From positions 1-14,230 of the forward strand of contig JAQUON010000027.1 of the NCBI GenBank assembly GCA_028717045.1: 14,230 nucleotides of DNA. Reading direction: 5' to 3'. The notes beneath the pieces were generated by a model. It was not told the origin of the DNA. It ran no database searches and saw nothing but the letters and a program-made list of their open reading frames with translations. This document shows, one piece after another, positions 1 to 14,230 of this stretch; within the stretch, counting starts at the first letter, position 1, and every line of letters begins with the position of its first letter. Made by a program: the position numbers and the translations under genes. The DNA is from Candidatus Omnitrophota bacterium. Its GTDB lineage: Bacteria; Omnitrophota; Gorgyraeia; Gygaellales; Profunditerraquicolaceae.

Positions 1-318
1 TCGCCTTTTTCGGGCAGGATTACGCTTGAGGTGAGGCCCGAAGATACGCCCGAAGGTATCTGTACTTCGTCGGGGACAGTAGGCCATTCGCTGAGTTTCG
101 GCTGCGCTGATAGCGTTGCCATTGTCTCCAGGAACGCTGCATTAGCTGACGCGGTTGCTACGGCGTGCGCAAACCTTGTAAGCGGTACGCAGGATTTGGC
201 CAAGGCCGTTGCCTTTGCGCGTTCGGTTGGCGGCATCAAGGGGGTAGTGATAATAGTTGAGGGCAGCCTTGTCAGCTGGGGCAGCATCGTATTCTCGGTA
301 AAAAGGCCGGAAAAATAA
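1..318 (+). CDS. C-terminal fragment of a UPF0280 / ApbE-like family protein (5' end lies outside the window)
   Basis: Frame 1 is open from base 1 to TAA at 316-318, and the GTG at 31 in the ORF track is probably internal. The segment TSSGTVGHSLSFGCADSVAIVSRNAALADAVATA resembles the conserved C-terminal block of UPF0280 proteins as I remember them. The family assignment is from memory only. Confidence 0.5.
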   Translation, partial: SPFSGRITLEVRPEDTPEGICTSSGTVGHSLSFGCADSVAIVSRNAALADAVATACANLVSGTQDLAKAVAFARSVGGIKGVVIIVEGSLVSWGSIVFSVKRPEK

Positions 319-419
319 TAATTTTCAAGAACCGCCGACAGCACCGCAATTTTTTTTAAAAAAATTATTTTCTCGACGGGAAGAACGCCATTTTTACCGT
401 AAATTATTATAAAAAAATC

Positions 420-448
420 TTGACAATGCATAGTATATACAGTATGAT
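420..448 (+). promoter_or_regulatory. sigma70-type promoter of the ATP-grasp/KamA operon
   Basis: TTGACA (420-425), an exact 17-nt spacer, then TATGAT (443-448). An A/T-rich UP-element-like tract lies at 401-417. The predicted TSS is near 455, about 100 nt upstream of the ATG at 554. Confidence 0.55.
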
Positions 449-511
449 ACAGATAATAAAAATAGAGGATGGAGGTTGAAAACTTAAATTGAAAAAATAG
501 GAAGTACTTAC

Positions 512-545
512 AGGGCTCTTGATTTTAGAAGGAGCCTATTTTTTT
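512..545 (+). terminator. Intrinsic-terminator-like hairpin inside the 5' leader (candidate attenuator)
   Basis: AGGGCTCTT (512-520) pairs with AAGGAGCCT (529-537), giving about 8 bp with one bulge or wobble and an 8-9 nt loop. An A then T7 follows (538-545). The right arm holds the only SD-like AAGGAG in the leader, 19 nt before the ATG and too far to serve as its RBS. Confidence 0.4.
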
Positions 546-553
546 AAATCCTC

Positions 554-1546
554 ATGAAAACCATAGGCTTAACGTACGATTTAAAGACAGATTATAAGTT
601 CAAAGACGACGACCCGCCCGATGCAGCCGCGGAATTCGACCATCCCTCTACCATTGACGTAATCGCCGACGCAATAGAATCCCAGGGTTTTAAGGTAAAA
701 CGCATTGGAAATGTTGAGAGCCTTTTGGAAAAGGTAGATACCCTTAACGTGGATATGGTATTTAATATCTCTGAAGGGATCTCCGGGCGGAACCGCGAAT
801 CCCAGGTCCCGATGCTGCTTGAGATGCGCAATATCCCTTTTGTGGGCGCAGATGCGCTTACGTTGGGAGTAACCCTCGATAAAATTATGGCGAAAAAAAT
901 CTTTATCGCCGAAGGGATACCCACGCCTAAATTTTTCGAGGTCAAGAACATCGCGGAAAACCATTTGCACATCGACCATCTTAAATTCCCTTTGATCGTA
1001 AAGCCGCGCTTTGAAGGTTCTTCAAAGGGCTTAAGCGAATCCTCCCGGGTCGAAAGCATAGACGAACTTAAGAAACAGGCCGAGTACATCATCTCTTTCT
1101 ATAAACAACCCGCGCTCGTAGAAGAATTTATCCGCGGGGAGGAACTGACGGTCGCTCTTATAGGCAACGACCCGCCTGAAGTATTGCCGCCGGTCCACAT
1201 CAAGATTGACGGCAGATATAAACTGCACGATAAATTTTATACCTTTGAGCGCATTACTTCAGACAGGCTGGAATATGTCTGCCCGGCGCGCATCAGCCAG
1301 GAGCTGAAAAAGGAACTCTCCGAGCTGGCCCTGAAAGTATATGACACGGTTGAATGCAAGGATTTCGGGCGGGTGGATTTCAGGGTTGACGAAAACGGCA
1401 AGCCCTATGCCCTCGAAATCAACCCTTTGCCTTCCTTGTCCACCGAAGACGTATTTATGGTGGTGGCAAAGGCGATAGGCATTACCTACGAAGAGATAAT
1501 CGGCCGGATATTGCGTAGCGCCTTTAAAAGGTATAACCTCAATTAA
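554..1546 (+). CDS. ATP-grasp amide ligase, D-alanine--D-alanine ligase-like family (paralogue A)
   Basis: 330 aa. ATP-grasp motifs are present: PLIVKPRFEGSSKG (ATP lysine plus Gly-rich loop), ALVEEFIRGEELTV (hinge), GRVDFRV...ALEINPLPS (Mg/ATP Asp...Glu-x-Asn). The N-terminus MKTIGLTYDLK...AEFD..TID lacks the GGxSxEHEVS motif of true Ddl. Confidence 0.85.
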   Translation: MKTIGLTYDLKTDYKFKDDDPPDAAAEFDHPSTIDVIADAIESQGFKVKRIGNVESLLEKVDTLNVDMVFNISEGISGRNRESQVPMLLEMRNIPFVGADALTLGVTLDKIMAKKIFIAEGIPTPKFFEVKNIAENHLHIDHLKFPLIVKPRFEGSSKGLSESSRVESIDELKKQAEYIISFYKQPALVEEFIRGEELTVALIGNDPPEVLPPVHIKIDGRYKLHDKFYTFERITSDRLEYVCPARISQELKKELSELALKVYDTVECKDFGRVDFRVDENGKPYALEINPLPSLSTEDVFMVVAKAIGITYEEIIGRILRSAFKRYNLN

Positions 1547-2542
1547 ATGAAAGTAGCGCTTACTTACAACCTGAAAAAGGAAGACGAAAGCAAGCCTGCG
1601 GATTATTTTTCCGAATTTGATTCCGAAGAGACGATCCAGGCTATCGCGTCTGCACTTTCCACAAAGGGCCACTCGGTAATTTCAATTGACGCTGCGCAAC
1701 GTGACATATTTACCTGCCTCAAGCGCCATGCACCCGATATGGTATTCAATATCGCCGAAGGAGCTTCCAATAGGCTGCGTGAATCAGAAATTCCGGCGAT
1801 ACTCGATTTTTTAAAAATTCCCTATACCGGCTCAAACACAGTCGCCTTGGCCCTGGCGCTTAACAAAGGCATCACCAAAAAAATCCTCAGGGCGGACAAT
1901 ATTCCTACTCCGCCTTTTCAGATTTTCATAAAAGGCAACGAGCCGCTTAATCCGGCGTTGCGTTTCCCCCTCATTGTGAAGCCCAACCGGGAAGGTTCCG
2001 CAAAGGGTATCAGCGTCAGCAACGTCGTGAAGACACCTGAAGCCCTGTATGCCAAAATCAAAGAGATTATTGCGCTCTATAAGCATGAAGCGCTGGTTGA
2101 GGAGTTTATTGATGGCAGGGAGCTGACCGTTGGTATCTTAGAAAACGGCAAAACCACGGTGCTGCCTATCCTTGAGATCGATTTCTCTACGTGCCTGAAG
2201 AGCGGTGAATATTTTTATTCATGGCGGATGAAAGAGTACCAGGGCGATGCGGAGATGGGTCTTACTCCCACTTTTCACTGCCCGGCAAACCTCGACAAGG
2301 AGATAGAGCAAAAGATAAAAGACGTTGCTTTAAGGACCCACCGCGCTGTTGGGTGCCAGGATATATCACGTACGGATATCCGCTTAAGCAAAGAGAATAT
2401 TCCCTACGTGCTTGAGATAAACCCCCTGCCCGGCCTTAACCCAAAAGAGTCAAATTTTCCTTTGATGGCGTATGCGGCAGGCATGAAATACGAGGATCTT
2501 ATAGAGGCGATATTGTTAAGCGCCTCGGAAAGGAAGGGTTGA
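1547..2542 (+). CDS. ATP-grasp amide ligase, D-alanine--D-alanine ligase-like family (paralogue B)
   Basis: 331 aa. Its ATG directly abuts the TAA of paralogue A (TAAATG at 1544-1549). It has the same motif set: PLIVKPNREGSAKG, ALVEEFIDGRELTV, SRTDIRL...VLEINPLPG. It aligns with paralogue A over its full length at an estimated one-third to 40% identity by eye. Confidence 0.85.
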   Translation: MKVALTYNLKKEDESKPADYFSEFDSEETIQAIASALSTKGHSVISIDAAQRDIFTCLKRHAPDMVFNIAEGASNRLRESEIPAILDFLKIPYTGSNTVALALALNKGITKKILRADNIPTPPFQIFIKGNEPLNPALRFPLIVKPNREGSAKGISVSNVVKTPEALYAKIKEIIALYKHEALVEEFIDGRELTVGILENGKTTVLPILEIDFSTCLKSGEYFYSWRMKEYQGDAEMGLTPTFHCPANLDKEIEQKIKDVALRTHRAVGCQDISRTDIRLSKENIPYVLEINPLPGLNPKESNFPLMAYAAGMKYEDLIEAILLSASERKG

Positions 2543-2543
2543 A

Positions 2544-3743
2544 TTGAGCAATAGTCTGCACAGTAATCCGCTGGCTTCCGAGCATCAGAAAACAATACAG
2601 GAATCCGCAGTAACCACCCGTCCTTCGCGCAGGCCGCTCGATTATCAACAGATAAGCCTTTTTAAGGACGTCAATCCCCTGGATTGGGAAGATTGGCATT
2701 GGCAGCTGAAAAATCGCATTTGTAAACTTGAGCAGGTTTCCCAGATAATAAAACTTACACCGCAGGAGGAGCAAGGAATAAAAAATGCCAAAGGCAGGAT
2801 GGCTATGTCGGTAACACCTTACTGGGCTACCCTGGCTGACCCAGACGACCCTACCTGCCCTATCAGGCGCCAGTGTATCCCCACTTCCCATGAGTTCAAG
2901 ATCAGCCCCCACGAAATGGTTGATCCTTGCGGGGAAGATAATAATTCTCCTGCCCCGCACCTGGTGCACCGTTATCCCGACCGCATACTCCTGCTTGCAA
3001 CCGAATCGTGCGCTATGTATTGCCGGCATTGTACGAGGCGCAGGCTTGTAGGCCACGTGCAGGAATCGGAGAACTACTCGAATAAATGGGATGCGGCGCT
3101 TGAATATTTACGCTCCAACAAAAAGATCCGCGACGTGCTCATTTCCGGAGGGGACCCTCTTCTCCTTGAGGACGGAGTTCTGGATGAGTTGCTCAAAAAG
3201 GTGCGAAGTATTCCCCACATAGAATTTTTGCGCATCGGCACCCGTATCCCGGTGACACTTCCTCAGCGCATTACCGACAATCTCATTGCGACCCTGAAGA
3301 AATATGCCCCGCTGTGGATTAGCATACATTTTAATCACCCGAAAGAAATAACCAAGCGTACCAAAAATGCATGCGGGTTACTTGCTGACGCGGGATTCCC
3401 CCTCGGCAGCCAGACGGTACTGCTCTCAGGGATAAACGACAGGCCCTATATTATGCGCAGGCTTATGCAGGAGCTTTTGAAAATAAGGGTGAGGCCCTAT
3501 TACATATACCAGTGTGACCTGGTACGGGGCACACAACATTTCAGGACCCCGGTGAGCGTAGGCATTAATATCATAGAGAAGCTCAGAGGGCATACCTCCG
3601 GCTATGCGGTTCCGGTATATGTGATTGATGCCCCTGGCGGCGGCGGCAAGATACCCATCGGACCTAACTATATTCTTTCGCAGGCAAAAGGCAAATACGT
3701 CATCCGAAACTATAAGAATAAAGTCTATACCTACCTAGAGTAG
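2544..3743 (+). CDS. kamA: Lysine 2,3-aminomutase (KamA family, radical SAM / PLP)
   Basis: 399 aa, with a TTG start one nt after the upstream TGA and a GGAAAGGAAGGG SD at 2527-2538. The radical SAM motif CAMYCRHC lies at 3009-3032. It aligns near-collinearly with my recollection of Clostridium subterminale LAM (DWxDWxWQ, HRYPDR, SGGDPLL, HFNHPxEIT, RVRPYYIYQCDL, GHTSGY, DAPGGGGK). Both Asp residues that bind the lysine epsilon-amine are present (QCDL at 3516-3518, IDAPG), as is the PLP lysine (3648-3650). Confidence 0.9.
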   Translation: MSNSLHSNPLASEHQKTIQESAVTTRPSRRPLDYQQISLFKDVNPLDWEDWHWQLKNRICKLEQVSQIIKLTPQEEQGIKNAKGRMAMSVTPYWATLADPDDPTCPIRRQCIPTSHEFKISPHEMVDPCGEDNNSPAPHLVHRYPDRILLLATESCAMYCRHCTRRRLVGHVQESENYSNKWDAALEYLRSNKKIRDVLISGGDPLLLEDGVLDELLKKVRSIPHIEFLRIGTRIPVTLPQRITDNLIATLKKYAPLWISIHFNHPKEITKRTKNACGLLADAGFPLGSQTVLLSGINDRPYIMRRLMQELLKIRVRPYYIYQCDLVRGTQHFRTPVSVGINIIEKLRGHTSGYAVPVYVIDAPGGGGKIPIGPNYILSQAKGKYVIRNYKNKVYTYLE

Positions 3744-3784
3744 CAGCCTTCCTTTTTTAAAAGAACGGGACAAGCTCATTTTAC

Positions 3785-3813
3785 TTGACCCGTTTTTTCA
3801 AGTAGTATATAAT
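3785..3813 (+). promoter_or_regulatory. sigma70-type promoter upstream of the EF-G-2 gene
   Basis: TTGACC (3785-3790), an exact 17-nt spacer, then consensus TATAAT (3808-3813). AAGGAG SD at 3844-3849, ATG at 3860. Confidence 0.6.
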
Positions 3814-3859
3814 AATACTCCCTTGTTTTTATCCTTAACACATAAGGAGATTATTGCCT

Positions 3860-5815
3860 ATGAGTGCCAATAACAAAAGAAGCATCATCCTCCTAGGGCA
3901 TGCCCAATCCGGTAAAACCTCCCTTTCAGAAGCGCTGCTGCATGCCTGTAAGGCCACCACCCGCAAAGGAGCGGTTGCTGATGGCACGACAGTCAGCGAC
4001 TACAGCCCCGACGAAATAGAAAGAAAAAGCTCCATTAATTCAGGCCTCTTGTACTGTGATTATAAAGAAAGCAGAATTCAGATTATCGATGCACCCGGCT
4101 ACGCGGATTTCTTCGGTGAGGTTATTTCGGGCGTAAGGGCGGTAGACGCTGCGCTGCTGGTCGTTGATGTGACGGCTGGCGTTGAGGTCGGTACCGAACG
4201 GGCCTGGCAGATGCTTGAGCAGGCTAATTTACCCGGTTGCATATTTATAAATAAAATAGACAAAGAAGGGGTAAACCTTAACAAGGTTATCGCAGAAATC
4301 AGGGAACGGCTTTCCAAGGGGGCGGTTTGTGTAGATTCGTTTGAATCCGCAGAGCTCGTTGAAACTATTGCCGAGAGCGACGACAAGCTTCTTGAGAAAT
4401 ACCTTGAAGGCACAAAACTCTCTCAGGAAGAATTGATAAAGGGGCTAAAAGAGGCGGTGATAAAGCGTAAAATATTCCCCGTCCTTGCCGGTTCTGCCTT
4501 GGCCGATAAGGGGATATCTGAATTATTGGAAGTAATATCCCGTCATATGCCCAGTCCCCTTGAAAGGCCGGCCATAGACGCAAAGAACCCCTCCGCACCC
4601 GATGAGAAAAAAGAGGTGGTTGCGCAGGAGGGGGGGCCTTTAAAAGCCTTTGTCTTTAAGTCCATTTCCGATCCTTATGTAGGGCAACTAACGCTTCTGC
4701 GCGTATTTGCCGGCACCCTGGTAGCGAACACCGGGTTCTATAACGTCAATAAAAAGACCAAGGAAAGGATAGGCCCGATTTACATCCTGCAGGGTAAGGA
4801 GCAGCGCTCGGTTGAATCAGCAGCGTGCGGCGATATAGTGGCGATAGCAAAGCTTAAAGAAACCAGCACATCTGATTCGCTATGCGAAGAGAAGGACCAG
4901 GTATTGTTTGAACCCATTGTATTCCCGGAGCCGGTCATTTCGGCTTCAGTGAAACCTAAATCGCGCCACGACGAAGATAAAATCTCTGGCGCCTTAAGTA
5001 AGCTCGCCGCGGAAGACCCGACCTTTAAGATAAGCCACGACCCGCAAACAAAAGAATTAATTATCTCCGGGCTCGGAGATCTACATCTTACGATTATGGT
5101 CGAGAGGATGAAAAAGCGGTTCAACGTCGAAGTTGATTTAGGGACCCCTAAAGTTTCCTATAAAGAGACGATTACCAAGAGCGCTAAAGTCCAGGGGAAA
5201 TTTAAGCGCCAGTCAGGCGGCCGCGGCCAGTACGGAGATGTGTGGATTGAGATCAACCCGCTTGAGCGCGGCAAAGGGTTTGAGTTTGTGGATAAGATTT
5301 TCGGCGGTGCAATTCCCCGCAATTACATCCCTTCCGTGGAAAAGGGGGTTTCACAGGCATGCCTGGAAGGCGCAGTAGCCGGTTATCCGATAGAAGACAT
5401 CCGCGTGACGCTCGTTGACGGCTCCTACCACGAGGTTGACTCATCCGACATGGCGTTCCAGATTGCCGGGGCAATGGCTTTAAGAAAAGCTATACTGGAA
5501 GCAGGGCCGGTACTTCTTGAGCCTATTATGGACGTAGACATTACCATACCGGAAGATTATCTCGGCGCGATTTCCGGAGACGTTAACTCCCGTCGCGGCC
5601 GGATCATGGGTATGGATATAAAAGGCAAATTGCAGGTGGTGAAAGCCCAGGTTCCCCAGTCAGAGATGTTTACGTACGCAAACGACCTGCGCTCGCTTAC
5701 CGGCGGCAGGGGCTCATACAGCATGCGCTTTTCTCATTATGAAGAAGTTCCGCATAAAATAGCCTCGACCATTATAAACAAGTACCAAGAAAGCAAGAAA
5801 CAGGAAGAACAGTAA
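3860..5815 (+). CDS. Elongation factor G paralogue, EF-G-2 (EFG-II) type
   Basis: About 651 aa from the ATG at 3860. The ORF-track TTG at 3854 sits only 4 nt after the SD, so the ATG is preferred. G1 is GHAQSGKTS (3896-3919), G3 is DAPGY (4088-4102) and G4 is NKID (4250-4261). Domains II-V are recognisable (GGRGQYGDVW, GSYHEVDSSDMAFQIA, LLEPIM, RRGRIMGM). It closely resembles my recollection of Thermus thermophilus EF-G-2, including its shorter length and the DAPGY motif. Confidence 0.85.
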   Translation: MSANNKRSIILLGHAQSGKTSLSEALLHACKATTRKGAVADGTTVSDYSPDEIERKSSINSGLLYCDYKESRIQIIDAPGYADFFGEVISGVRAVDAALLVVDVTAGVEVGTERAWQMLEQANLPGCIFINKIDKEGVNLNKVIAEIRERLSKGAVCVDSFESAELVETIAESDDKLLEKYLEGTKLSQEELIKGLKEAVIKRKIFPVLAGSALADKGISELLEVISRHMPSPLERPAIDAKNPSAPDEKKEVVAQEGGPLKAFVFKSISDPYVGQLTLLRVFAGTLVANTGFYNVNKKTKERIGPIYILQGKEQRSVESAACGDIVAIAKLKETSTSDSLCEEKDQVLFEPIVFPEPVISASVKPKSRHDEDKISGALSKLAAEDPTFKISHDPQTKELIISGLGDLHLTIMVERMKKRFNVEVDLGTPKVSYKETITKSAKVQGKFKRQSGGRGQYGDVWIEINPLERGKGFEFVDKIFGGAIPRNYIPSVEKGVSQACLEGAVAGYPIEDIRVTLVDGSYHEVDSSDMAFQIAGAMALRKAILEAGPVLLEPIMDVDITIPEDYLGAISGDVNSRRGRIMGMDIKGKLQVVKAQVPQSEMFTYANDLRSLTGGRGSYSMRFSHYEEVPHKIASTIINKYQESKKQEEQ

Positions 5816-5859
5816 CGTTATGCAGCTCTTCCTTATTTCTTGAAAACCAGGGCCTTGCC

Positions 5860-6561
5860 ATGAAAATCGGAATTGTCTCAATTTCAGATATCCCTGAGGG
5901 CACGCGCGCGATTAAAGATGAGCGCCTCGATGCGGTGCATGCACTCACCAAGTCGAAGAAAAAGACCTATTGCTCGGTCGAAATAGTCACGGAGGCTGCA
6001 CTTTTAGAGGCAGACGTACTTTTAGTGCACAAGGATTCCCTCGCCGACCTTATTTTAAAAGACCTGGAGTTTGTGGAGAACAGATTATCCCGCGCCTCGG
6101 ATGAGCCAGAAAAAGCAATACTGGGAAAATTGAAGGCCGTACTTGAGAGCGAACATTGTGTCTTCGCAAGCGTGGTAAGCGACGAAGAGAAGCGCTTGCT
6201 TTGCGGATACGGGCTCCTGACTAACAGGCCAATAACCCTCTTTATGCCGCAAGAACAGCCTGATTATAACGCAGCCCTCTTTGGGGCGCTGCACGAAGGG
6301 GGCTTCATCAATTTCCTGACTACAGGAGAAAAGGAATCACGCTCGTGGCTGATTAAAAAAGGCGCGACCGCCTGGGAAGCCGCAGGGGTAATTCATTCGG
6401 ATATCCAGAAAGGTTTTATCCGTGCCGAGATTATCAGTTACGATGATTTTATCCGCTCGGGCGGGGAAACACAAGCCAAGCAGGCAGGCAAATTGCGCCT
6501 GGAGCAGAAAGAGTATGTTATGCAGGACGCGGATTTAGCAAATTTCCGCTTTAACAAATAA
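5860..6561 (+). CDS. YchF/Ola1-like protein lacking NTPase motifs (DUF933/TGS C-terminal domain retained)
   Basis: 233 aa. The C-terminal ~85 aa (FLTTGEKESRSWLIKKGATAWEAAGVIHSDIQKGFIRAEIISYDDFI...GKLRLEQKEYVMQDADLANFRFN) match the YchF C-terminal domain almost motif for motif. The N-terminus MKIGIVSISDIPEGT keeps the first beta-strand but replaces the GxPNVGKST P-loop. No DxxG or NxxE is recognisable, and the protein is about 130 aa shorter than YchF. Confidence 0.75.
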   Translation: MKIGIVSISDIPEGTRAIKDERLDAVHALTKSKKKTYCSVEIVTEAALLEADVLLVHKDSLADLILKDLEFVENRLSRASDEPEKAILGKLKAVLESEHCVFASVVSDEEKRLLCGYGLLTNRPITLFMPQEQPDYNAALFGALHEGGFINFLTTGEKESRSWLIKKGATAWEAAGVIHSDIQKGFIRAEIISYDDFIRSGGETQAKQAGKLRLEQKEYVMQDADLANFRFNK

Positions 6562-6583
6562 GAAACAGCGGGGAGTTAGAAGA

Positions 6584-8146
6584 ATGGTAAAGATTACGCG
6601 CGCACTTATCAGTGTTTCCGATAAAACCGGCATCGTGGAGCTGTGCCAAGAGTTAAAAAAATGGGGGGTTGAAATTCTCTCTACGGGCGGCACGGCAAAA
6701 TTGCTGCGTGAAAATAATATTACCGTACAGGAGGTGTGCGAATACACGGGTTTTCCTGAAATGCTCGACGGGCGGGTAAAGACCTTGCACCCTAAGATCC
6801 ACGGCGGGCTGCTTGCGCTTAGGGAAAACCTGCAGCACCTCCAGAGCCTAAAAGACCAGGGCATCGGTCTCATCGACATGGTAGTGGTGAATCTTTACCC
6901 GTTTGAGAAAACCATTGAGAAGCCGGGGGTTGCGATTGAGGAAGCAATCGAGAATATCGACATCGGCGGCCCTTCAATGCTGCGCTCTGCGGCTAAAAAC
7001 TACCGTTGGGTCTGCGTACTTTCAAACCCTTCCCAGTACCCCGGCGTAATCGGGGAATTACGCAAATACAGCGGCAGCGTATCGCAGGAATTGATGCGCG
7101 ATTTGGCGACAGAGGTATTCGCGCGTACAAGCCATTACGACGGGGCAATCAACCGGTACCTAAAGTCAACTATCCGTAGTAAAGAAGGAGCACCCGCCGA
7201 TACCTGGCCTGCTGAACTCAATCTGCGTTTTGAAAAAATGCAGGAATTGCGTTATGGGGAGAACCCGCACCAAAAGGCCGCGCTTTACCGGGAAAAGGGC
7301 AATACCAAGGGGTTGGTTAATTTGATACAGTTACAGGGTAAGGAACTCTCGTTTAATAATATTTTAGACCTGCATTCGGCTTGGGAACTGGTGAAGGAAT
7401 TCGGCTGCCCTGCAGCGGCGATTATCAAACATAATAACCCCTGCGGAGTAGCGCAAGACGGGACGCTTAAAAAGGCATATTACCATGCCTGGAAGAGCGA
7501 TGAGCTTTCATCTTTTGGCGGGATTGTGGCGCTGAACAGGGAAGCCGATCTGGAAGTTGCAACACTCATTCTCAAGAGCGGCTTCAGGGAGTGCATTATC
7601 GCACCGCAGTATCAGCCGGCAGCCCTTGATTTATTTAAAACGAAAAAGAATCTGCGCGTCCTGCTATTGCATGAGTTAGAGCCGGTTGACGAATTAGAAT
7701 TCAAGCGCGTCGGCGCAGGGCTGCTCCTTCAGGCCAAAGATACGGCCTGCCTGGCGCAGGAAGGCTTAAAAATTCCGACCAAGAAAAAACCTACCAAGAA
7801 GCAGCTGGAAAGTCTTATATTCGGCTGGAAGGTTGCCAAACACGTAAAATCCAATGCGATAGTCCTTACCCAGGCCACCAAGACTGTAGGCATAGGCGCA
7901 GGCCAGATGTCCAGGGTAGATTCCGTTTTTATCGCAAGGCATAAAGCCGGTGCCCGAGCTAAAAATTCCTGCCTTGCCTCCGACGGGTTCTTCCCTAAGC
8001 CGGATGCAGTCAGGGAAGCCTCGCGCGCCGGCGCAAAAGCGATAATCCAACCGGGCGGTTCTATTGCCGACGATGAAATCATCAAAGCCTGCGATAGATA
8101 CGGAATTGCAATGGTCTTTACCGGCATCCGCCACTTCAAACACTAA
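6584..8146 (+). CDS. purH: Bifunctional AICAR formyltransferase / IMP cyclohydrolase
   Basis: 520 aa. N-terminal MGS-like IMPCH domain (ALISVSDKTG...LSTGGTAK...GRVKTLHPKIHGG) and C-terminal AICARFT domain (GENPHQ, KHNNPCG, GAGQMSRVDS, IQPGGSI.D). GGGGAG SD around 6570. Confidence 0.95.
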   Translation: MVKITRALISVSDKTGIVELCQELKKWGVEILSTGGTAKLLRENNITVQEVCEYTGFPEMLDGRVKTLHPKIHGGLLALRENLQHLQSLKDQGIGLIDMVVVNLYPFEKTIEKPGVAIEEAIENIDIGGPSMLRSAAKNYRWVCVLSNPSQYPGVIGELRKYSGSVSQELMRDLATEVFARTSHYDGAINRYLKSTIRSKEGAPADTWPAELNLRFEKMQELRYGENPHQKAALYREKGNTKGLVNLIQLQGKELSFNNILDLHSAWELVKEFGCPAAAIIKHNNPCGVAQDGTLKKAYYHAWKSDELSSFGGIVALNREADLEVATLILKSGFRECIIAPQYQPAALDLFKTKKNLRVLLLHELEPVDELEFKRVGAGLLLQAKDTACLAQEGLKIPTKKKPTKKQLESLIFGWKVAKHVKSNAIVLTQATKTVGIGAGQMSRVDSVFIARHKAGARAKNSCLASDGFFPKPDAVREASRAGAKAIIQPGGSIADDEIIKACDRYGIAMVFTGIRHFKH

Positions 8147-8213
8147 CCGTTTAATCCGTTCGATCCGTTATACCCGTTGTGTTTTAACGATAGCAACGAT
8201 AGTGCCGATGATG
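8147..8213 (+). repeat. 9-nt-periodic short direct-repeat array filling the purH-folC spacer
   Basis: CCGTT starts at 8147, 8156, 8165 and 8174, exactly 9 nt apart. The same register then continues as xxxAACGAT / xxxAACGAT / xxxGCCGAT (CGAT at 8188, 8197, 8206, plus one at 8161). The array runs from the base after the purH stop into the folC start codons. Confidence 0.6.
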
Positions 8214-9587
8214 TCCTATCCAGAAGCAGTTGCGTACCTAGAGTCTTTCGTTAACTACGAAAAGATCCCTTGTTATCCTTATAAAAGGTCGGTAAAGCTG
8301 AAGCGCATCAGGGACTTTTTGGCCAGCATAGGTAATCCGCACCATGCTTTGCGCTGCGTGCATGTTGCTGGTACCAAGGGTAAAGGCTCGACCTCTGCGT
8401 GTATCGCCTTTATGTTGCGCGCCGGCGGTTACCGCGTAGGCTTGTATACTTCTCCGCACCTATCGGATTTCAGGGAGCGGATACGGGTTTTATCTGCAAG
8501 AACGCCGCAGGAGTCTTTGGGCTATGCATTTGAAGGGATGATCACGAAGAACGCGTTAGCCCGCCTTTTATCGCAATTGAAGCCAGCCATTGAGAAATTT
8601 CGACGGGTTTCTAAATATGGCGCCCTTTCATTTTTTGAGGCATATACCTCTTTGGCGTTTTTATATTTTAAAGAGAGAAAAGTCGATATCGCGGTATTAG
8701 AAACAGGCCTGGGAGGAAGGCTTGATGCGACTAATGTGGTGGATCCTTTGGTGTGCGCGATTACTCCCATAAGCCATGAACACACCCGGCAATTAGGGAA
8801 TACCTTGGAGAAAATTGCAAAAGAGAAGGCCGGGATAGTAAAGTCTCCGGGCGTAATCGTAATAAGCGCGCCGCAGAATAACGATGCAGGCAGGGTGATT
8901 AGGGAAAGGTGCGCCAGGGTAGGTGCGCAATTATTCACAGTGGGAAAAGATATCCGTCTTAAAATGACCGGTACGCTCTTTAGCGTGCAGGGGTTATTCG
9001 GAGAGTACCCGAATTTAAAAATCAAGCTCCTGGGGTCTCATCAGCGCATCAATGCCGCGGTGGCCATAGGTGCTGTTGAAGGGTTGAGGTATGCTAATAT
9101 CAGGATAGGCAATAGGTCAATTCGCAAAGGGCTCAACCGTACCTTTTGGCCGGGCAGATGCGAGGTTGTTGCCAGGGCTCCGTTTGTCATACTGGATGGC
9201 GCACAAAATAAGGCTTCTGCCTTGGCGTTAAAAAAGGCAATCAGGGAAAATTTCAGGTATAAAGATTTGATTCTGGTGTTAGGCATTTCACAAGATAAAG
9301 ATATACAGGGTATCTGTAGCACGTTACGCAACCTGGCCGATACGGTTATCTTAACTAAGGCATGCACCATCCGGGCGAGCGAGCCGCAGCAGTTGTATGG
9401 CTATTTTGCCGGCAAAAGGCGTTTTCTTACCGCAGATATAAAGAGCGCAAAACTATTGGCAGAGACGATGGCGGGTAAAAACGACCTTGTGTTGGTTACC
9501 GGGTCTTTTTTTGTGATAGGTGAATTCAGGCGTTGTCTTTTTAAAGACCAATACCCATATGTGCCGCGCAGCGTTTCAGCATCTTAA
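8208..9587 (+). CDS. folC: Bifunctional folylpolyglutamate synthase / dihydrofolate synthase
   Basis: Mur-ligase fold motifs: HVAGTKGKGST (P-loop), YTSPHL, VLETGLGGRLDATN, ITPISHEH, LDGAQN. I chose the ATG at 8208 (ATG 8211 and GTG 8202 are alternatives) because MMSYPEAVAYLESF is a typical FolC N-terminus. The ORF-track start at 8064 would overlap purH by 83 nt. Confidence 0.85.
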   Translation: MMSYPEAVAYLESFVNYEKIPCYPYKRSVKLKRIRDFLASIGNPHHALRCVHVAGTKGKGSTSACIAFMLRAGGYRVGLYTSPHLSDFRERIRVLSARTPQESLGYAFEGMITKNALARLLSQLKPAIEKFRRVSKYGALSFFEAYTSLAFLYFKERKVDIAVLETGLGGRLDATNVVDPLVCAITPISHEHTRQLGNTLEKIAKEKAGIVKSPGVIVISAPQNNDAGRVIRERCARVGAQLFTVGKDIRLKMTGTLFSVQGLFGEYPNLKIKLLGSHQRINAAVAIGAVEGLRYANIRIGNRSIRKGLNRTFWPGRCEVVARAPFVILDGAQNKASALALKKAIRENFRYKDLILVLGISQDKDIQGICSTLRNLADTVILTKACTIRASEPQQLYGYFAGKRRFLTADIKSAKLLAETMAGKNDLVLVTGSFFVIGEFRRCLFKDQYPYVPRSVSAS

Positions 9588-9602
9588 CAAATAAGGTATG
9601 CC

Positions 9603-10991
9603 ATGTCGAGCGTGATACTGCAGGAAACTATCGCGGCTATCATTACCGCGTTCGGCGGATCCGCGATCGGTGTTATCAGAATCAGCGGGAAAGACGCGAT
9701 ATCTATTGCGGATACTATTTTTCTTTCTCCTGGCGGGAAGAAACCTTCTGAGCGCAAGAGCTATACCGCCTGTCACGGCTGGATTACAAAGAAGCAAGGC
9801 GCAGAAATAATAGATGAGGTGCTCTTGACTGTGTTCCGCGCCCCCAAGAGCTACACCGGAGAAGATTGCGTTGAGATAAGCTGCCACGGCAGTATCGTCG
9901 GATTACGCGCGGTGCTTGATTTGATCCTTTCTTATAACTGCCGGCTTGCCGAGCCGGGCGAGTTTACCAAGCGGGCTTTTTTAAACGGCAAGCTGGATTT
10001 ATCCCAGGCAGAAGCGGTTTCGGATGTAATCACCGCAAGGACCGATGCAGCCCTGCGGTTGGGTATGCGGCAGTTACGGGGCATCTTGTCTTTAAATATC
10101 AACCGCATAAGGAATACCCTCTTGGGCGTGCTGTCCGCGCTTGAAGCAAACATCGATTTTCCCGAAGAAGAGACAGGGGCCTTACGTAGCAGCGAAATCA
10201 AAGAAGGCCTTCGCCGGGCAACCGGGCAACTCGATACAATCCTTGCTACCGTAAAAGAGGGCAGGGTCTTGCGTGAAGGGGTCAGGGTGGTTATCTGCGG
10301 CAAACCGAATGTAGGCAAATCCTCTCTTTTAAATACCCTCTTGCAAGAAGAACGTTCTATTGTGACCCCTATTGCCGGTACCACCCGTGATTCCATTGAG
10401 GAAACAATAGATATGCAGGGAATTCCCGTGCATATTATTGATACAGCCGGCATCATCGAGCCAAAAGACCTGGTAGAGAAAGAAGCCCTCCGGCGCACGA
10501 AACGTTGCCTTGACTTAGCAGACCTTGTGCTTTTGCTTTTTGACGGCAGCAAAAGAATTACCAAAGGCGACGCGATATTGATGAAAAGGCTGAGGCGTAA
10601 AAAAACACTGGCAGTCGTCAATAAAATTGACCTTCCGCAAAAAATCGAAACACAGAGAATCAAAAAAGAATTTTCTCTCGTGGTAGAAATTTCCGCAAAA
10701 AAACACCAGAACATACGCGCACTGGAGGAGGCGATTAAGGTTGCGGCATGTTCCGGGGCGGCACAGGATGCAGAGGCCCTTATGGTAAGCAATATAAGGC
10801 ATATCCGCGCGCTTCATTCCGCGAAAAAATGTATTGTTCAGGCAGCCAATTCATTAGATAATACACTGTCGGTTGAGTTCATTGCCGAGGATATCAAGGG
10901 TGCATTAGTCCATCTTGATGAGATAGTGGGGAAAAGGTTTTCTGAAGAATTGCTGGAGACCATTTTTAGTAAGTTCTGCATAGGTAAATAG
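9603..10991 (+). CDS. mnmE: tRNA modification GTPase MnmE (TrmE)
   Basis: 462 aa. N-terminal folate-binding domain ([22 protein letters not shown]), central G domain ([23 protein letters not shown]) and the diagnostic C-terminal FCIGK. Confidence 0.95.
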
Positions 10992-10999
10992 GAGAGTAT

Positions 11000-11557
11000 A
11001 TGGACAGGAAAAAAATAGAAAAGGCGGTCAGGGATATACTGGTGGCTATTGGCGAAGACCCCCGTAAAAAAGACTTACGGGAAACTCCCAAGCGGGTAGC
11101 CCAGATGTACGAAGAGATTTTCTCCGGCATGCGCAGCAATCCCGAGAAAGAGCTGGAAGTTATTTTGGACCAGAAGCATAACGAAATCGTATTATTGAAG
11201 GGTATCCCGTTCTATAGTGTCTGTGAACACCATCTTCTTCCTTTTGTGGGGAAGGCGCATGTCGCCTATATCCCAAAAGGCGGCAGGGTGACCGGTTTAA
11301 GCAAGCTTGCCCGCGTGGTGGATATTCTCGCTAAGCGTCCGCAGGTGCAGGAGCGCCTTACTACCCAGATCGCGGAAATCATTATGTCAAAACTGAAACC
11401 CCAAGGATGTATGGTGGTAATTGAAGCGGAGCATTTATGCATGTCGTTTCGCGGAGTCAAGAAGCCCGGGACACTGACGGTTACCTCAGCGGTCAGAGGG
11501 GTATTTAAAGACAATGAAAAAACCCGCGCCGAAGCCCTCGCATTGATGCAGTCGTAA
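11000..11557 (+). CDS. folE: GTP cyclohydrolase I (FolE type IA)
   Basis: 185 aa. [37 protein letters not shown] and EAEHLCM motifs. AGGAGAG SD overlaps the mnmE stop. Confidence 0.95.
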
Positions 11558-11562
11558 AAACC

Positions 11563-11799
11563 ATGGGACCGTATGGTATCGTTTTTGTTTTTGCCGGTAT
11601 TGCGGTGTTAAGCCTGCTGTTGGGCGTCTTTATATTCCTGCATCCTGCGTCTGCAATCGAAATCCAGAGGCGGTTTTATCTTAAGATTAATTGGAACATT
11701 GAGCCTGTGTCCATGCCGAAGGAAATCCGTAATACTAAAGCAATGGGATTATTACTTATACTGGTTTCTTTTTTTCTGTTGGTCTATGTATTACTGTAA
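11563..11799 (+). CDS. Small hypothetical membrane protein (two predicted TM helices)
   Basis: 78 aa. Hydrophobic segments IVFVFAGIAVLSLLLGVFIFL and GLLLILVSFFLLVYVLL flank a basic loop. It starts 5 nt after the folE stop. I recognise no family, and coding status rests on ORF length, position and hydropathy. Confidence 0.45.
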   Translation: MGPYGIVFVFAGIAVLSLLLGVFIFLHPASAIEIQRRFYLKINWNIEPVSMPKEIRNTKAMGLLLILVSFFLLVYVLL

Positions 11800-11828
11800 T
11801 CGCGCGGACAAAAGGCACTAAGGATGAT

Positions 11829-13412
11829 ATGGGGCAGACGGTTCGGCCGGAGAAGATGAAAATCCCTTGTTTGCGATTCCGCCATCTTTTAACGTTGGCT
11901 TGCCTTGTCATAATCGGCTTCTCAATCTACGGTAATTCCCTTCATAATTATTTTGTCTGGGACGATTATTTTCTTGTCCGCAACAACGACCACATCAAAG
12001 ACCCGTCTTTTTTAGGGAATATTTTTACTGAAGACGTAGGGACCGGCAGCGGAAAGAAAATCGGTTTCTGGCGGCCCTTACAAATGTGCTCGTATATGTT
12101 GAATTACGCCTTTTCGGGTTTGAGGGTGGAGTCTTACCATTTTGTCAATATCGCCCTTCACATCCTGGTCGCGTATGCCTTTTACTGGTGTACGTTACTT
12201 CTTTTCGGTAACACCCTTCTTTCCTTTGCCGCCTCACTCCTTTTTTTAACGCACCCCGTGCATACCGAAGCAGTTACCTATATTGCCGGAAGGTCGGATT
12301 CCATGGCCGCACTCTTTATTTTACTCTCATGTATTGCCTATTTGCAATTTACCCGCCGGGTGAGCTTTTTGAACTATGTATTGATGTGCTTCAGTTTTAT
12401 CCTTGGGCTCTTATCAAGAGAAATAACCATCGTATTCCCTCTCTTACTGCTGTGGTATCACTATGTATATAAAATCAAATATCGCGTTAAGGCGCTTCTC
12501 CTGCCGTTTCTGATAAGCGCAGGGTATATAGCGCTGCGCTATACCGCTTTAAAATCTTTTTTGCCCGAGGCTGCCACTTCGACGCTGAGACAGAGGCTGC
12601 CCGGCGCATTCGTTGCGTTTGCCGATTACCTGCGCCTGCTGTGCGTGCCTTCGGATTTACATATGGAGTACGGTAACCGGTTTTTTAGTTTGCTCGACCC
12701 CAGGGCCTTAATAGGCATGTGCTTATTTGGTGCCGTACTTGGCGTTATGTATCATAAAAGGAATTCAAGCAGGCTCATCGTCTTTTCTCTGGGATGGTTC
12801 TTGCTCTGGCTCCTACCGTCGTTGAATCTTTTTCCGGTTAATGCCTATATGGCCGAACACTGGCTCTATCTTCCTTCAATGGGGATATTCATTATCATTG
12901 CGGATATCTTTTGCAGAGCATACGCCGCCGTGCGCATGAAGGCGGTTACAGTCATATTCCTGCTTGTTCTTACGATGCTCTATTCGTTCCTTACTATCCA
13001 ACAGAATCAATATTGGAGGCATCCGATTGTTTTTTACAAAAGGACCATACGCTATAACCCGCAGAGTGCCCGGCTATACGGCAATTTAGGGAGCACTTAC
13101 CGTGAGCTCGGTAAGTTTGAAGATGCGGTGAGCGCATATGAGAAGGCCCTAGAGGTCGATCCTTCTTTTACCGGGGCATACATTAACTTAGGCATTGCCT
13201 ATGAACATGTGGGTAACTATGGCGCAGCGATCAAGGCGTACGAGAGCGCGGCAGCATCTAATCCCGATAATGCGCTTGCCTATGCAAGGCTCGCTAACGC
13301 CTGTTATGCAGTTGGCGACTCGGATATAGCGAATAGCTATTATGAGAAAGCGACTGCGCTCGGATATCTGTTTAATCCGCCTTTCCCTGGATCGGAAAAG
13401 AAAACGCCATGA
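11829..13412 (+). CDS. Polytopic membrane protein with C-terminal TPR repeats (GT-C / PMT-TMTC-like putative glycosyltransferase)
   Basis: 527 aa with roughly 10 hydrophobic segments. An early-loop acidic motif, FVWDDYFLVRNN, is typical of TMTC/DUF1736-like GT-C proteins. The C-terminus has about three TPR units (ARLYGNLGSTYRELGKFEDAVSAYEKALEVDP, AYINLGIAYEHVGNYGAAIKAYESAAASNP, ...). AAGGA SD at 11820. Confidence 0.75.
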   Translation: MGQTVRPEKMKIPCLRFRHLLTLACLVIIGFSIYGNSLHNYFVWDDYFLVRNNDHIKDPSFLGNIFTEDVGTGSGKKIGFWRPLQMCSYMLNYAFSGLRVESYHFVNIALHILVAYAFYWCTLLLFGNTLLSFAASLLFLTHPVHTEAVTYIAGRSDSMAALFILLSCIAYLQFTRRVSFLNYVLMCFSFILGLLSREITIVFPLLLLWYHYVYKIKYRVKALLLPFLISAGYIALRYTALKSFLPEAATSTLRQRLPGAFVAFADYLRLLCVPSDLHMEYGNRFFSLLDPRALIGMCLFGAVLGVMYHKRNSSRLIVFSLGWFLLWLLPSLNLFPVNAYMAEHWLYLPSMGIFIIIADIFCRAYAAVRMKAVTVIFLLVLTMLYSFLTIQQNQYWRHPIVFYKRTIRYNPQSARLYGNLGSTYRELGKFEDAVSAYEKALEVDPSFTGAYINLGIAYEHVGNYGAAIKAYESAAASNPDNALAYARLANACYAVGDSDIANSYYEKATALGYLFNPPFPGSEKKTP

Positions 13413-13461
13413 GGCCATACGGCCTTAGTCAATATGAAGGCCGGGCTTCGCCAAAATTTAC

Positions 13462-13490
13462 TTGACAGTTGATTTTAAAGAAAATAAACT
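13462..13490 (+). promoter_or_regulatory. Possible sigma70-type promoter for the PilZ gene pair
   Basis: TTGACA (13462-13467), a 17-nt spacer, then TAAACT (13485-13490). This puts the TSS within a base or two of the ATG at 13498, so the mRNA could be leaderless. The -10 element is weak, so this call is tentative. Confidence 0.3.
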
Positions 13491-13497
13491 AGAGTTG

Positions 13498-13869
13498 ATG
13501 GAAAACGCAGAAAACAGCTATGCGGGCGTTGAGAGGCGGCGTTACCCAAGGTTGCGCGCGGCAGTTATCGAATATTCATTCGCAGAAAAAGACTCGCCTC
13601 AACAGTCGGCTTTTACCAGAGATGTGGGCGCAGGAGGCATTTCCATCATTGTAAACGAGAAAATAGAAATAGGAACTATTTTGCTCCTTAAGATATACCT
13701 GCCCAGCTATAATGATCCGATTCTTACGCAAGGCAGGGTGGTCTGGAGAAACCCCTCGGCATTTCAGCTGCCCCACGCGGACCGCTTCGACCTGGGGATT
13801 GAGTTTACGGAAATCAGCGAAGAAGACCAGCAGAAGATATCAGAGTACGTCTTAAAACCGTTGAAATAA
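13498..13869 (+). CDS. PilZ domain protein (putative c-di-GMP receptor), paralogue 1
   Basis: RRRYPR (RxxxR) followed by DVGAGG (13621-13638) and a C-terminal GRVVWR...GIEFTEIS block. I prefer the ATG at 13498 over the ORF-track TTG at 13462. It gives the same N-terminal spacing as the downstream paralogue, and that TTG is part of a TTGACA -35-like box. Confidence 0.75.
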   Translation: MENAENSYAGVERRRYPRLRAAVIEYSFAEKDSPQQSAFTRDVGAGGISIIVNEKIEIGTILLLKIYLPSYNDPILTQGRVVWRNPSAFQLPHADRFDLGIEFTEISEEDQQKISEYVLKPLK

Positions 13870-13870
13870 T

Positions 13871-14230
13871 ATGAATGCAGGGGGACAGATCGACAAGGAA
13901 CGCAGAAGGTATCCGCGGCTGAACCTCAATATTCAGGTTGAGTATTCGGTCATACGCGGCGACGAAGCTGCCAAGACGCAGTCAAAGAATATCAGCGCTG
14001 GCGGCATATGCCTTATTCTTTATGAAGATATCCAGCCCGATTCAATACTAGAATTGAAATTTTACCTGCCTCGTGATGCCGATCCCATCAAGGCCATAGG
14101 CAGAGTAGTCTGGAGAAGCGAGATTGTGGTTGCCGATGACAAAAGAACCAGGTTTGACGCAGGAATTGAGTTTCTTGAAATAAGCGATACCGATAGAACC
14201 AAAATTACCCAGCATGTATTCTCTTTGCTG
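13871..14230 (+). CDS. PilZ domain protein, paralogue 2 (3' end outside the window)
   Basis: Not in the ORF track because no stop is reached. My own translation from the ATG at 13871 gives 120 codons open to the window end: MNAGGQIDKERRRYPRLNLNIQVEYS...SKNISAGGICL...GRVVWRS...GIEFLEISDTDRTKITQHVFSLL. It has canonical RxxxR and NxSxxG (13988-14005) motifs. The start is 1 nt after the upstream TAA. Confidence 0.8.
   Translation, partial: MNAGGQIDKERRRYPRLNLNIQVEYSVIRGDEAAKTQSKNISAGGICLILYEDIQPDSILELKFYLPRDADPIKAIGRVVWRSEIVVADDKRTRFDAGIEFLEISDTDRTKITQHVFSLL

Follow-up and report, generated by a model that had tools for sequence, protein, structure and literature searches.

Two Ddl-like ATP-grasp ligases and a KamA-family aminomutase probably form a widespread, uncharacterised beta-lysine ligation pathway

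To our knowledge, beta-lysine has four fates, i.e., it is acetylated to an osmolyte, used to modify EF-P, fermented, or incorporated into antibiotics of the nonribosomal peptide synthetase (NRPS) type. In the PylB–PylC pair, a radical S-adenosylmethionine (SAM) lysine mutase makes a diamino acid, which an ATP-grasp ligase then joins to the epsilon-amine of lysine. The Ngg/AsnO pathway yields the dipeptide osmolyte N-acetylglutaminylglutamine amide (NAGGN) by means of a GNAT domain and an ATP-grasp ligase. Here we describe a three-gene operon of a Candidatus Omnitrophota bacterium (GenBank assembly GCA_028717045.1, contig JAQUON010000027.1), in which the genes for two Ddl-like ATP-grasp proteins, termed A and B, are followed by a gene for a KamA-family aminomutase. 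The window that we analysed comprises 14,230 nucleotides (nt), i.e., positions 1 to 14,230 of the forward strand. From sequence comparisons, the system is probably a widespread and uncharacterised beta-lysine ligation pathway, with known enzyme families and a logic that has precedents in PylB/PylC, AblA/AblB and NAGGN.

Ligase A (554–1546, 330 residues, ATG start), ligase B (1547–2542, 331 residues, ATG start) and KamA (2544–3743, 399 residues, TTG start) are encoded head to tail on the forward strand. The A/B junction is TAAATG, with a gap of 0 nt, and the B/KamA junction is TGA-A-TTG, with a gap of 1 nt, exactly as an initial annotation of this DNA had reported.

Homology assigns the third protein to the KamA family of radical-SAM enzymes, with a lysine-type active site. 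It aligned with lysine 2,3-aminomutase (LAM) from Clostridium subterminale (structure 2A5H) with E = 1e-141 (residues 37–399 aligned) and retains the CxxxCxxC motif (C125/C129/C132) as well as R134, D293, D330 and K337 (2A5H numbering). Of these, R134 contacts the carboxylate, D293 and D330 contact the epsilon-amine, and K337 is the lysine that binds pyridoxal phosphate (PLP). All lysine-specific residues of 2A5H are hence kept, which bears out the hallmarks of a lysine-type 2,3-aminomutase named in the initial annotation. The protein passed the KamA family model TIGR00238 (359.6, cut-off 199.2) and stayed just below the cut-off of the AblA equivalog TIGR03820 (511.5 vs 525.4). Its resemblance to LAM/AblA amounted to 475 bits; the EpmB model gave 248 against a cut-off of 369, at 33% identity to E. 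coli EpmB, and the models for Glu- and Arg-2,3-aminomutases remained well under their cut-offs. The window KamA stops at 2A5H residue 367, has R in place of C268, and matches LAM_C in positions 1–56 of 127 only. In the clostridial enzyme, the C-terminal cysteine region provides the ligands of the Zn site; the window KamA lacks this region. Among ligase-linked KamA proteins of related loci, R134, K337 and the cysteines are kept in 65 of 65, D330 in 64 and D293 in 63. Their tails are generally short, unrelated and, with one exception, without the Cys triad.

As judged from sequence and predicted fold, A and B are members of a Ddl-like branch of the ATP-grasp superfamily and not bona fide Ddl. 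In Pfam they matched Dala_Dala_lig_C (PF07478) only, with E = 4e-39 for A and 3e-39 for B, and the same scan gave no match with Dala_Dala_lig_N (PF01820) in either protein. All NCBIfam Ddl/Van models stayed under their cut-offs. The best of these, NF002378 (cut-off 243), gave 186.4 with A and 201.9 with B, TIGR01205 reached 168 against 246, and all equivalog Ddl models were far under cut-off. We searched solved structures by Foldseek with an AlphaFold2 model of A, which had a predicted local distance difference test score (pLDDT) of 92.2 and a predicted template modelling score (pTM) of 0.91. The top 50 matches were all Ddl or Van enzymes with template modelling (TM) scores of 0.70–0.81, the best having about 0.8 at 21–25% identity. 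Similarity to other ATP-grasp ligases was marginal, i.e., the RimK Pfam model reached 19.8 bits against a cut-off of 21 for A only, the RimK TIGR match was under cut-off, and the L-amino-acid ligase BL00235 gave E = 1e-4 and 9e-6.

A and B keep the equivalents of eight residues of E. coli DdlB, namely K97, K144, E180, E187, R255, D257, E270 and N272, as do the consensus sequences of the two ligase clades described below. With these ATP/Mg and acyl-phosphate residues retained, both proteins look catalytically competent, in line with what had been assumed for them. The substrate side differs from DdlB. The N-terminal motif of Ddl, GGxSxE(R/H)xVS, had been noted as missing, and in fact its GGxSxE part reads DxxxE[FY]D in A and B; moreover, H63-G64 is changed to [SA]-E, GEDG to GRxRES, and the omega loop is altered. 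Of the D-Ala-binding residues, S150 is kept and H63 is replaced by S or A. In Ddl, E15 holds the donor amino group, and K215 and S281 contact the acceptor carboxylate. The glutamate equivalent to E15 is conserved in A and B. On an approximate loop alignment, B also keeps the equivalents of K215 and S281, though not of Y216, whereas A has none of the K215, Y216 and S281 equivalents and shows RI and ..STED.. there.

The ligases belong to a large family. At E≤1e-30, A as query retrieved 1,072 representatives of clusters formed at 50% identity, and a family profile detected 8,000 or more clusters at the 90% level; in databases, these homologues go by no other names than "ATP-grasp domain-containing protein" and "D-alanine--D-alanine ligase". 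A 12-sequence family alignment, run against one genome per GTDB species, gave at least 554 confirmed relatives, of which we examined the best 80 loci. Taxon labels of metagenome-assembled genomes (MAGs) are given as deposited, and several MAGs labelled "Planctomycetales" (71–76% identity) probably belong to Omnitrophota. Open reading frame (ORF) calling in the fetched loci was crude and, where contigs were high in GC, in some cases picked up antisense ORFs (clusters c16 and c41).

In 70 of these 80 loci, from more than 12 phyla and in several gene orders, a kamA gene adjoins the ligase on the same strand, and six of the ten loci without it are interrupted by a contig end. The synteny of ligase and aminomutase, for which the initial annotation had suggested a test, thus recurs far beyond chance. 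KamA-linked ligases occur in Omnitrophota, Bacillota, Chloroflexota/Dehalococcoidia, Ignavibacteriota/Bacteroidota, Desulfuromonadales, Syntrophales, Nitrospirota, Acidobacteriota, Gemmatimonadota, Lentisphaerae, Dictyoglomi and others; Margulisiibacteriota are also among the 80 ligase loci. Moreover, the two activities are fused in some organisms, either as ligase–KamA (P0190) or as KamA–ligase (P0206). Tandem ligase–ligase proteins make up 68 of 91 long family members, and the N-terminal extensions of some long members had no Pfam match. We regard the conserved linkage in several gene orders, together with the fusions, as strong evidence that ligases and aminomutase act in one pathway. Placement by HMM and fold, synteny, fusions and the literature search all support how the initial annotation had interpreted the operon. 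Neither kamDE nor mur genes were linked to the loci examined, and the window ORFs include no mur or ftsQ gene, as had been stated before. A search with E. coli EF-P, EpmA and EpmB found no efp in about 165 related loci and one aminoacyl-tRNA synthetase (aaRS)-like match only; ORF clustering of the fetched loci revealed no conserved small target or carrier ORF in the clusters.

In a neighbour-joining (NJ) tree, which is crude, and with clade-specific hidden Markov models (HMMs), the ligases split into two subfamilies, G1 and G2. G1 is the core type and the sole type in two-gene clusters and in the KamA fusions, whereas G2 is divergent and in the tree occurs mostly in GNAT-containing clusters. 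The layout G1-G1-KamA was found in 19 Omnitrophota-type loci including the window, with one further G1-G1 locus ended by the contig end. Ignavibacteriota, Bacteroidota, Desulfuromonadales and Syntrophales have G1-G2-GNAT-KamA, Dehalococcoidia and relatives have KamA-G1-G2-GNAT, and minimal G1-KamA pairs occur in Bacillota, Nitrospirota, Dictyoglomi and some Omnitrophota. Most phyla outside Omnitrophota thus combine a core G1 with a divergent G2 and a GNAT, whereas Omnitrophota have two G1 paralogues and no GNAT.

Our initial assumption that B corresponds to the second ligase found in other phyla was rejected by the NJ tree and by the clade-specific HMMs. The G1 and G2 models gave 370 and 240 bits with A, 369 and 251 bits with B, and 151 and 130 bits with E. 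coli DdlB, and in the tree the B clade is confined to Omnitrophota-type loci. B is hence an Omnitrophota-type duplicate of G1. The description of A and B as two diverged paralogues holds at 38% identity, with the refinement that both are of G1 type and that the second copy is found in Omnitrophota-type loci only. A itself is 75–95% identical across many Omnitrophota. In Omnitrophota, a second G1 seems to have taken the place of "G2 + GNAT". On the approximate loop alignment, G1 proteins keep the equivalents of E15, K215 and S281, whereas G2 proteins are without the E15 equivalent, which would suit an acyl donor with an acetylated or distant amino group.

The GNAT encoded in clusters of other phyla has about 160 residues. 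Its best match was a weak one to RimI (40–50 bits, cut-off 86), and in a scan of NCBI models the AblB model gave no match for these proteins. We counted 25 GNAT-containing loci by ORF clustering and 28 by tblastn, a difference due to the crude ORF calling. That no partner of a known beta-lysine fate is present hence stands for the window, but not elsewhere, as in most other phyla a GNAT, although not AblB-like, lies inside the cluster.

Dehalococcoidia clusters often contain, at their 3' end, genes for a MarC-family membrane protein and for a protein of 579 residues that has an HDAC domain and whose N-terminal half is unassigned; upstream lies a gene for a divergent MarR-like regulator. Examples of accessory genes (loci L029–L082) lie at 12056–12550 in L047 and at 12496–14856 and 8100–8390 in L043. 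Relatives without KamA, including tandem ligases in Myxococcota/Deltaproteobacteria MAGs, adjoin a Peptidase_S58 or Amidohydro_3 enzyme (examples are L084 9221–11484, L193 8264–8890, L194 2093–4292, L067 1275–2351 and L050 7825–9393). In L084 a GNAT is also present, and in one KamA-less case a glutathione-synthetase-like ATP-grasp gene is adjacent. Peptidase_S58 is the DmpA/BapA family of beta-aminopeptidases, which remove N-terminal beta- or D-amino acids. These neighbours hint that products of the ligase family may be small peptides with unusual N-termini. The accessory context as a whole, i.e., GNAT, MarC, HDAC-like and MarR-like genes, and S58 or Amidohydro_3 enzymes near KamA-less relatives, points to small-molecule metabolism.

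From the enzyme families, active-site residues, linkage and fusions we infer the substrates of the ligases, the order of the steps and the role of the product. We give a slightly better than even chance to the operon making a free, small peptide or amide that contains beta-lysine. KamA, a radical-SAM and PLP enzyme, would shift the alpha-amino group of L-lysine to C3 and so produce beta-lysine, likely the (3S) form because KamA resembles LAM/AblA rather than EpmB. Each Ddl-like ligase would then phosphorylate a carboxylate with ATP, and an amine would attack the acyl-phosphate to form an amide bond. B probably joins beta-lysine in a dipeptide bond to a further amino acid, which may be lysine or again beta-lysine, since B retains the equivalents of E15, K215 and S281 that would contact the donor amino group and the acceptor carboxylate. 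A probably forms a second amide elsewhere, e.g., on a side-chain amine, at a site without a neighbouring carboxylate, because its contacts to the acceptor carboxylate are gone and acidic residues have appeared in their place. In most other phyla, G2 and the GNAT would take the second step and yield an N-acetylated product. Candidate products are Nε-(beta-lysyl)-lysine, beta-lysyl-beta-lysine, or a tripeptide. As physiological role we favour an abundant cytoplasmic solute or polycation, e.g., an osmolyte or a polyamine-like compound. The assignment of steps to A and B deserves much less confidence than the small-peptide product itself.

Several points weigh against this proposal. Beta-lysine need not be a substrate of the ligases and might, for example, act as a regulator instead. 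The division of labour between A and B rests on few aligned residues in poorly aligning loops. As the window KamA is without the C-terminal Zn-site region of the studied enzyme, its activity is assumed. The existence of KamA-less relatives means that the ligase family is not restricted to beta-lysine. Finally, the high conservation of A and a neighbourhood of translation genes would also fit a housekeeping macromolecular target.

The three genes are predicted to be one discrete transcription unit with its own promoter, leader and terminator. A sigma-70-like site, TTGACA-17-TATGAT (420–448, forward strand, 11/12 positions), precedes the operon, and a second one, TTGACC-17-TATAAT (3785–3813, forward strand, 11/12 positions), precedes the downstream EF-G gene. 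These are the two top-scoring sigma-70-like sites in positions 1–6600, and they bracket the triad, as the initial annotation had said; newly seen are hairpins at 513–545 and 3760–3798. The latter, a terminator-like hairpin with U-run on the forward strand, closes the operon 3' of KamA. It has a minimum free energy (MFE) of −15 kcal/mol (z = −3.17), only 1 of 200 shuffles folded equally well, and it overlaps the −35 box of the EF-G promoter. A simple terminator scan with a loop limit of 8 missed this hairpin, presumably for its longer loop, and it was seen by eye. The bracketing promoter-like sites and the 3' hairpin with its U-run together set the triad apart as a unit.

Between the operon promoter and the first ATG (554) lies a conserved 5' leader, a putative attenuator (455–546, forward strand). 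Its order is GGAGG (471–475), 13 nt, a mini-ORF TTG AAA AAA TAG (489–500), 12 nt, a GGGCTC...GAGCC hairpin (513–537) and a U-run (539–545); hairpin and U-run (513–545) resemble a terminator. The ATG at 554 follows 8 nt past the U-run and has no Shine-Dalgarno sequence before it. No promoter fits between terminator and ATG, and the operon must hence be expressed by read-through. The −10 box lies about 21 nt before GGAGG, with the same spacing in related loci.

The leader is common to 14 Omnitrophota-type loci. The sole consensus structure is the 8-bp terminator hairpin, with U-A/U-G alternation at one pair; in the leader alignment we found no conserved structure 5' of it. Pairing of GGAGG with a CCUC before the ATG was predicted for the window alone, and other loci do not conserve it. 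What the leader RNA does conserve are three UUGGA repeats and a single Lys codon. The mini-ORF reads M-K-K-stop in the window; in most loci it reads M-E-K-I-G-stop and ends 7–9 nt before the hairpin. In some loci its TAG is changed to TGG and the frame continues through the hairpin, which indicates that the conserved feature is the RNA sequence rather than the peptide. A pattern scan of metagenomes returned 105 stretches, of which 80 were fetched and 75 had enough downstream DNA. In 52 of these 75 the A-B ligase genes followed 26–192 nt downstream, and the other 23 hits were without GGAGG and appear unrelated. Beside window positions 455–546, the observations on the leader refer to loci L007–L026 and L087–L166. 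Rfam gave nothing meaningful, either at the gathering threshold for the whole window or at E≤10 for 400–600. The leader is a candidate for attenuation, which could be ribosome-mediated and respond to lysine supply, or could act via a protein that binds GGA repeats. It is also a candidate new cis-regulatory element, and we know of none described in the phylum Omnitrophota.

Taken together with the leader, a broader picture can be drawn, to which we give somewhat less than an even chance. KamA and the Ddl-like G1 ligases would form a widespread and so far unrecognised route to a new class of bacterial metabolite, namely free di- or tripeptides with beta-lysine, or short oligo-beta-lysines, which most phyla would N-acetylate and Omnitrophota would leave unacetylated. 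Many uncultured anaerobes would use them as a major cytoplasmic solute or polycation. The switch in Omnitrophota would be the leader, new and specific to this operon, which would sense lysine supply by its Lys-codon mini-ORF directly ahead of a terminator.

The operon is flanked on its 3' side by genes for EF-G, a YchF-C-domain protein, PurH, FolC, MnmE and FolE. The EF-G-family protein (3854–5815, 653 residues; likely real start ATG 3860, preceded by AAGGAG) matches full-length EF-G models in two stretches (query 166–650 vs model 210–691), suggesting a shortened G' region; its gene lies 3' of the ligase operon in 9 related loci. The next gene (5860–6561) encodes a 233-residue protein that matches the YchF C-terminal domain only (residues 150–232) and whose N-terminus, MKIGIVSISDIPEG..., is without P-loop motif; it is kept beside EF-G in 11 related loci. 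The FolC-like ORF (8064–9587) as listed starts at TTG with an 83-nt overlap with the end of the PurH-like gene, and its true start is probably further downstream. On the 5' side, positions 31–318 encode the C-terminal 95 residues of a UPF0280/PRK04334-family protein, whose full 245-residue gene lies directly 5' of the ligase operon in 7 related loci.

The product might instead be an antimetabolite or antibiotic, i.e., a Trojan-horse di- or tripeptide of the bacilysin, tabtoxin or phosphinothricin tripeptide type or a streptothricin-like oligo-beta-lysine, with the GNAT serving self-protection and a membrane protein serving export. ATP-grasp ligases do build several such peptides, and the GNAT, HDAC-like or amidohydrolase, MarC-family and MarR-like genes of some phyla resemble a set for acetyl protection, deprotection and export. 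We nevertheless consider an antibiotic unlikely. The distribution is very wide and vertical in small-genome anaerobes (Omnitrophota, Dehalococcoidia), and in Omnitrophota identity is high (75–80%) and the housekeeping neighbourhood is conserved. Also, minimal two-gene versions occur, and the window contains no exporter, resistance gene or further tailoring enzyme.

The initial annotation had raised a second possibility, RimK-like attachment of beta-lysine to a protein. One or both ligases would then modify EF-P, another translation factor or a ribosomal protein and replace the function of EpmA, for which the ATP-grasp protein ligases RimK and LysX provide known examples. This is now disfavoured and in our view distinctly improbable, because the roughly 165 related loci contain no efp, one aaRS-like match and no small conserved target or carrier ORF. 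The EF-G and YchF-C genes 3' of the operon in 9–11 of the Omnitrophota loci examined might be taken to indicate a translation target; however, this neighbourhood is found in Omnitrophota only, and EF-G has its own strong promoter, with a terminator in between. Strong conservation of A suits a housekeeping role, and RimI is the nearest match, albeit a weak one, for the GNAT that other phyla encode. Against this, fold and pocket motifs of the ligases are those of the small-substrate Ddl branch, with the RimK Pfam and TIGR models under cut-off, and KamA is LAM/AblA-like and not EpmB-like in both identity and model score.

It is very unlikely that KamA merely serves a known fate of beta-lysine, i.e., the N-epsilon-acetyl-beta-lysine osmolyte or lysine fermentation, with the ligases as unrelated passengers. 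The AblA model is indeed the nearest one for KamA, narrowly missing its cut-off, and a GNAT is present in the clusters of other phyla, but the AblB model does not match this GNAT. The window has no GNAT, KamD/E, Kdd or Kce, and genes of the fermentation route (KamDE, Kdd, Kce, Kal) are also missing from the annotated neighbours of a 79% identical relative. Moreover, KamA is constantly accompanied by the ligases, with fusions of the two in some organisms.

Finally, although the closest sequence and fold matches are all Ddl/Van enzymes and databases label homologues D-alanine--D-alanine ligase, A and B can hardly be cell-wall D-Ala-D-Ala or D-Ala-D-X ligases that lie beside a lysine aminomutase by chance, as their NCBIfam scores (186 and 202 vs 243) are too low, Dala_Dala_lig_N is missing, H63 and GEDG are replaced, as are K215, Y216 and S281 in A, the family HMMs score A and B at 370 but DdlB at only 151/130, ligase–KamA fusions exist, mur/fts neighbours do not, and the cluster is common in MAGs of Dehalococcoidia, in which Dehalococcoides is without peptidoglycan.

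If beta-lysine is indeed ligated into a small peptide or amide, ATP-grasp ligation would be a fifth fate of this amino acid. The route would be common, as the ligase family counts more than 1,000 representatives (50% identity) and occurs in no fewer than 554 species-level genomes, and many of its carriers are uncultured lineages of largely unknown physiology such as Omnitrophota and Dehalococcoidia. The label "D-alanine--D-alanine ligase" misleads inferences on the cell wall, e.g., in wall-less Dehalococcoidia. Comprising only two to four genes, the set is amenable to a direct test, and the enzymes would be useful as peptide ligases for beta-amino acids.

In the searchable full texts of the literature we found no paper that describes this gene set and no published pathway that matches it, although there may be an earlier in-silico mention; PMC11641026 proved irrelevant to the gene set. 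No model in NCBIfam, Pfam, PADLOC or Rfam describes the system, and the PADLOC anti-phage defence models gave no match for any of the three proteins.

Compared with known systems, A and B share with Ddl and Van enzymes (VanA/B/C) the three-domain ATP-grasp fold (TM about 0.8), the ATP/Mg and acyl-phosphate residues and the glutamate equivalent to E15. They differ from them in sequence (21–25% identity), sub-cut-off model scores, substrate motifs, the lack of a mur/fts context, and the linkage or fusion to KamA. BacD/YwfE, BL00235 and RimK likewise form peptide bonds by ATP-grasp chemistry without ribosome or NRPS, but their similarity to A and B is marginal. In EpmB–EpmA, as proposed here, a KamA-family enzyme feeds beta-lysine to an ATP-dependent ligase; EpmA, however, is an aaRS paralogue and not an ATP-grasp enzyme, and efp is unlinked in the present loci. 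AblA–AblB likewise relies on a KamA of the AblA/LAM type for its beta-lysine, and in most other phyla a GNAT is found in the same cluster, whereas the window has none and the Abl pathway involves no ATP-grasp ligase. The G1-G2-GNAT clusters resemble the NAGGN pathway, a likeness drawn by description only; that pathway involves other amino acids and lacks an aminomutase, and its fused enzyme is organised in another way. Among radical-SAM enzymes PylB is BioB-like, whereas the operon has a KamA and contains two ligases and no PylD, and no PylC chain was among the solved-structure (Protein Data Bank) matches of A and B at E≤1e-3. What the operon would share with PylB–PylC is thus not family membership but the logic, i.e., a lysine mutase reaction followed by ATP-grasp ligation.

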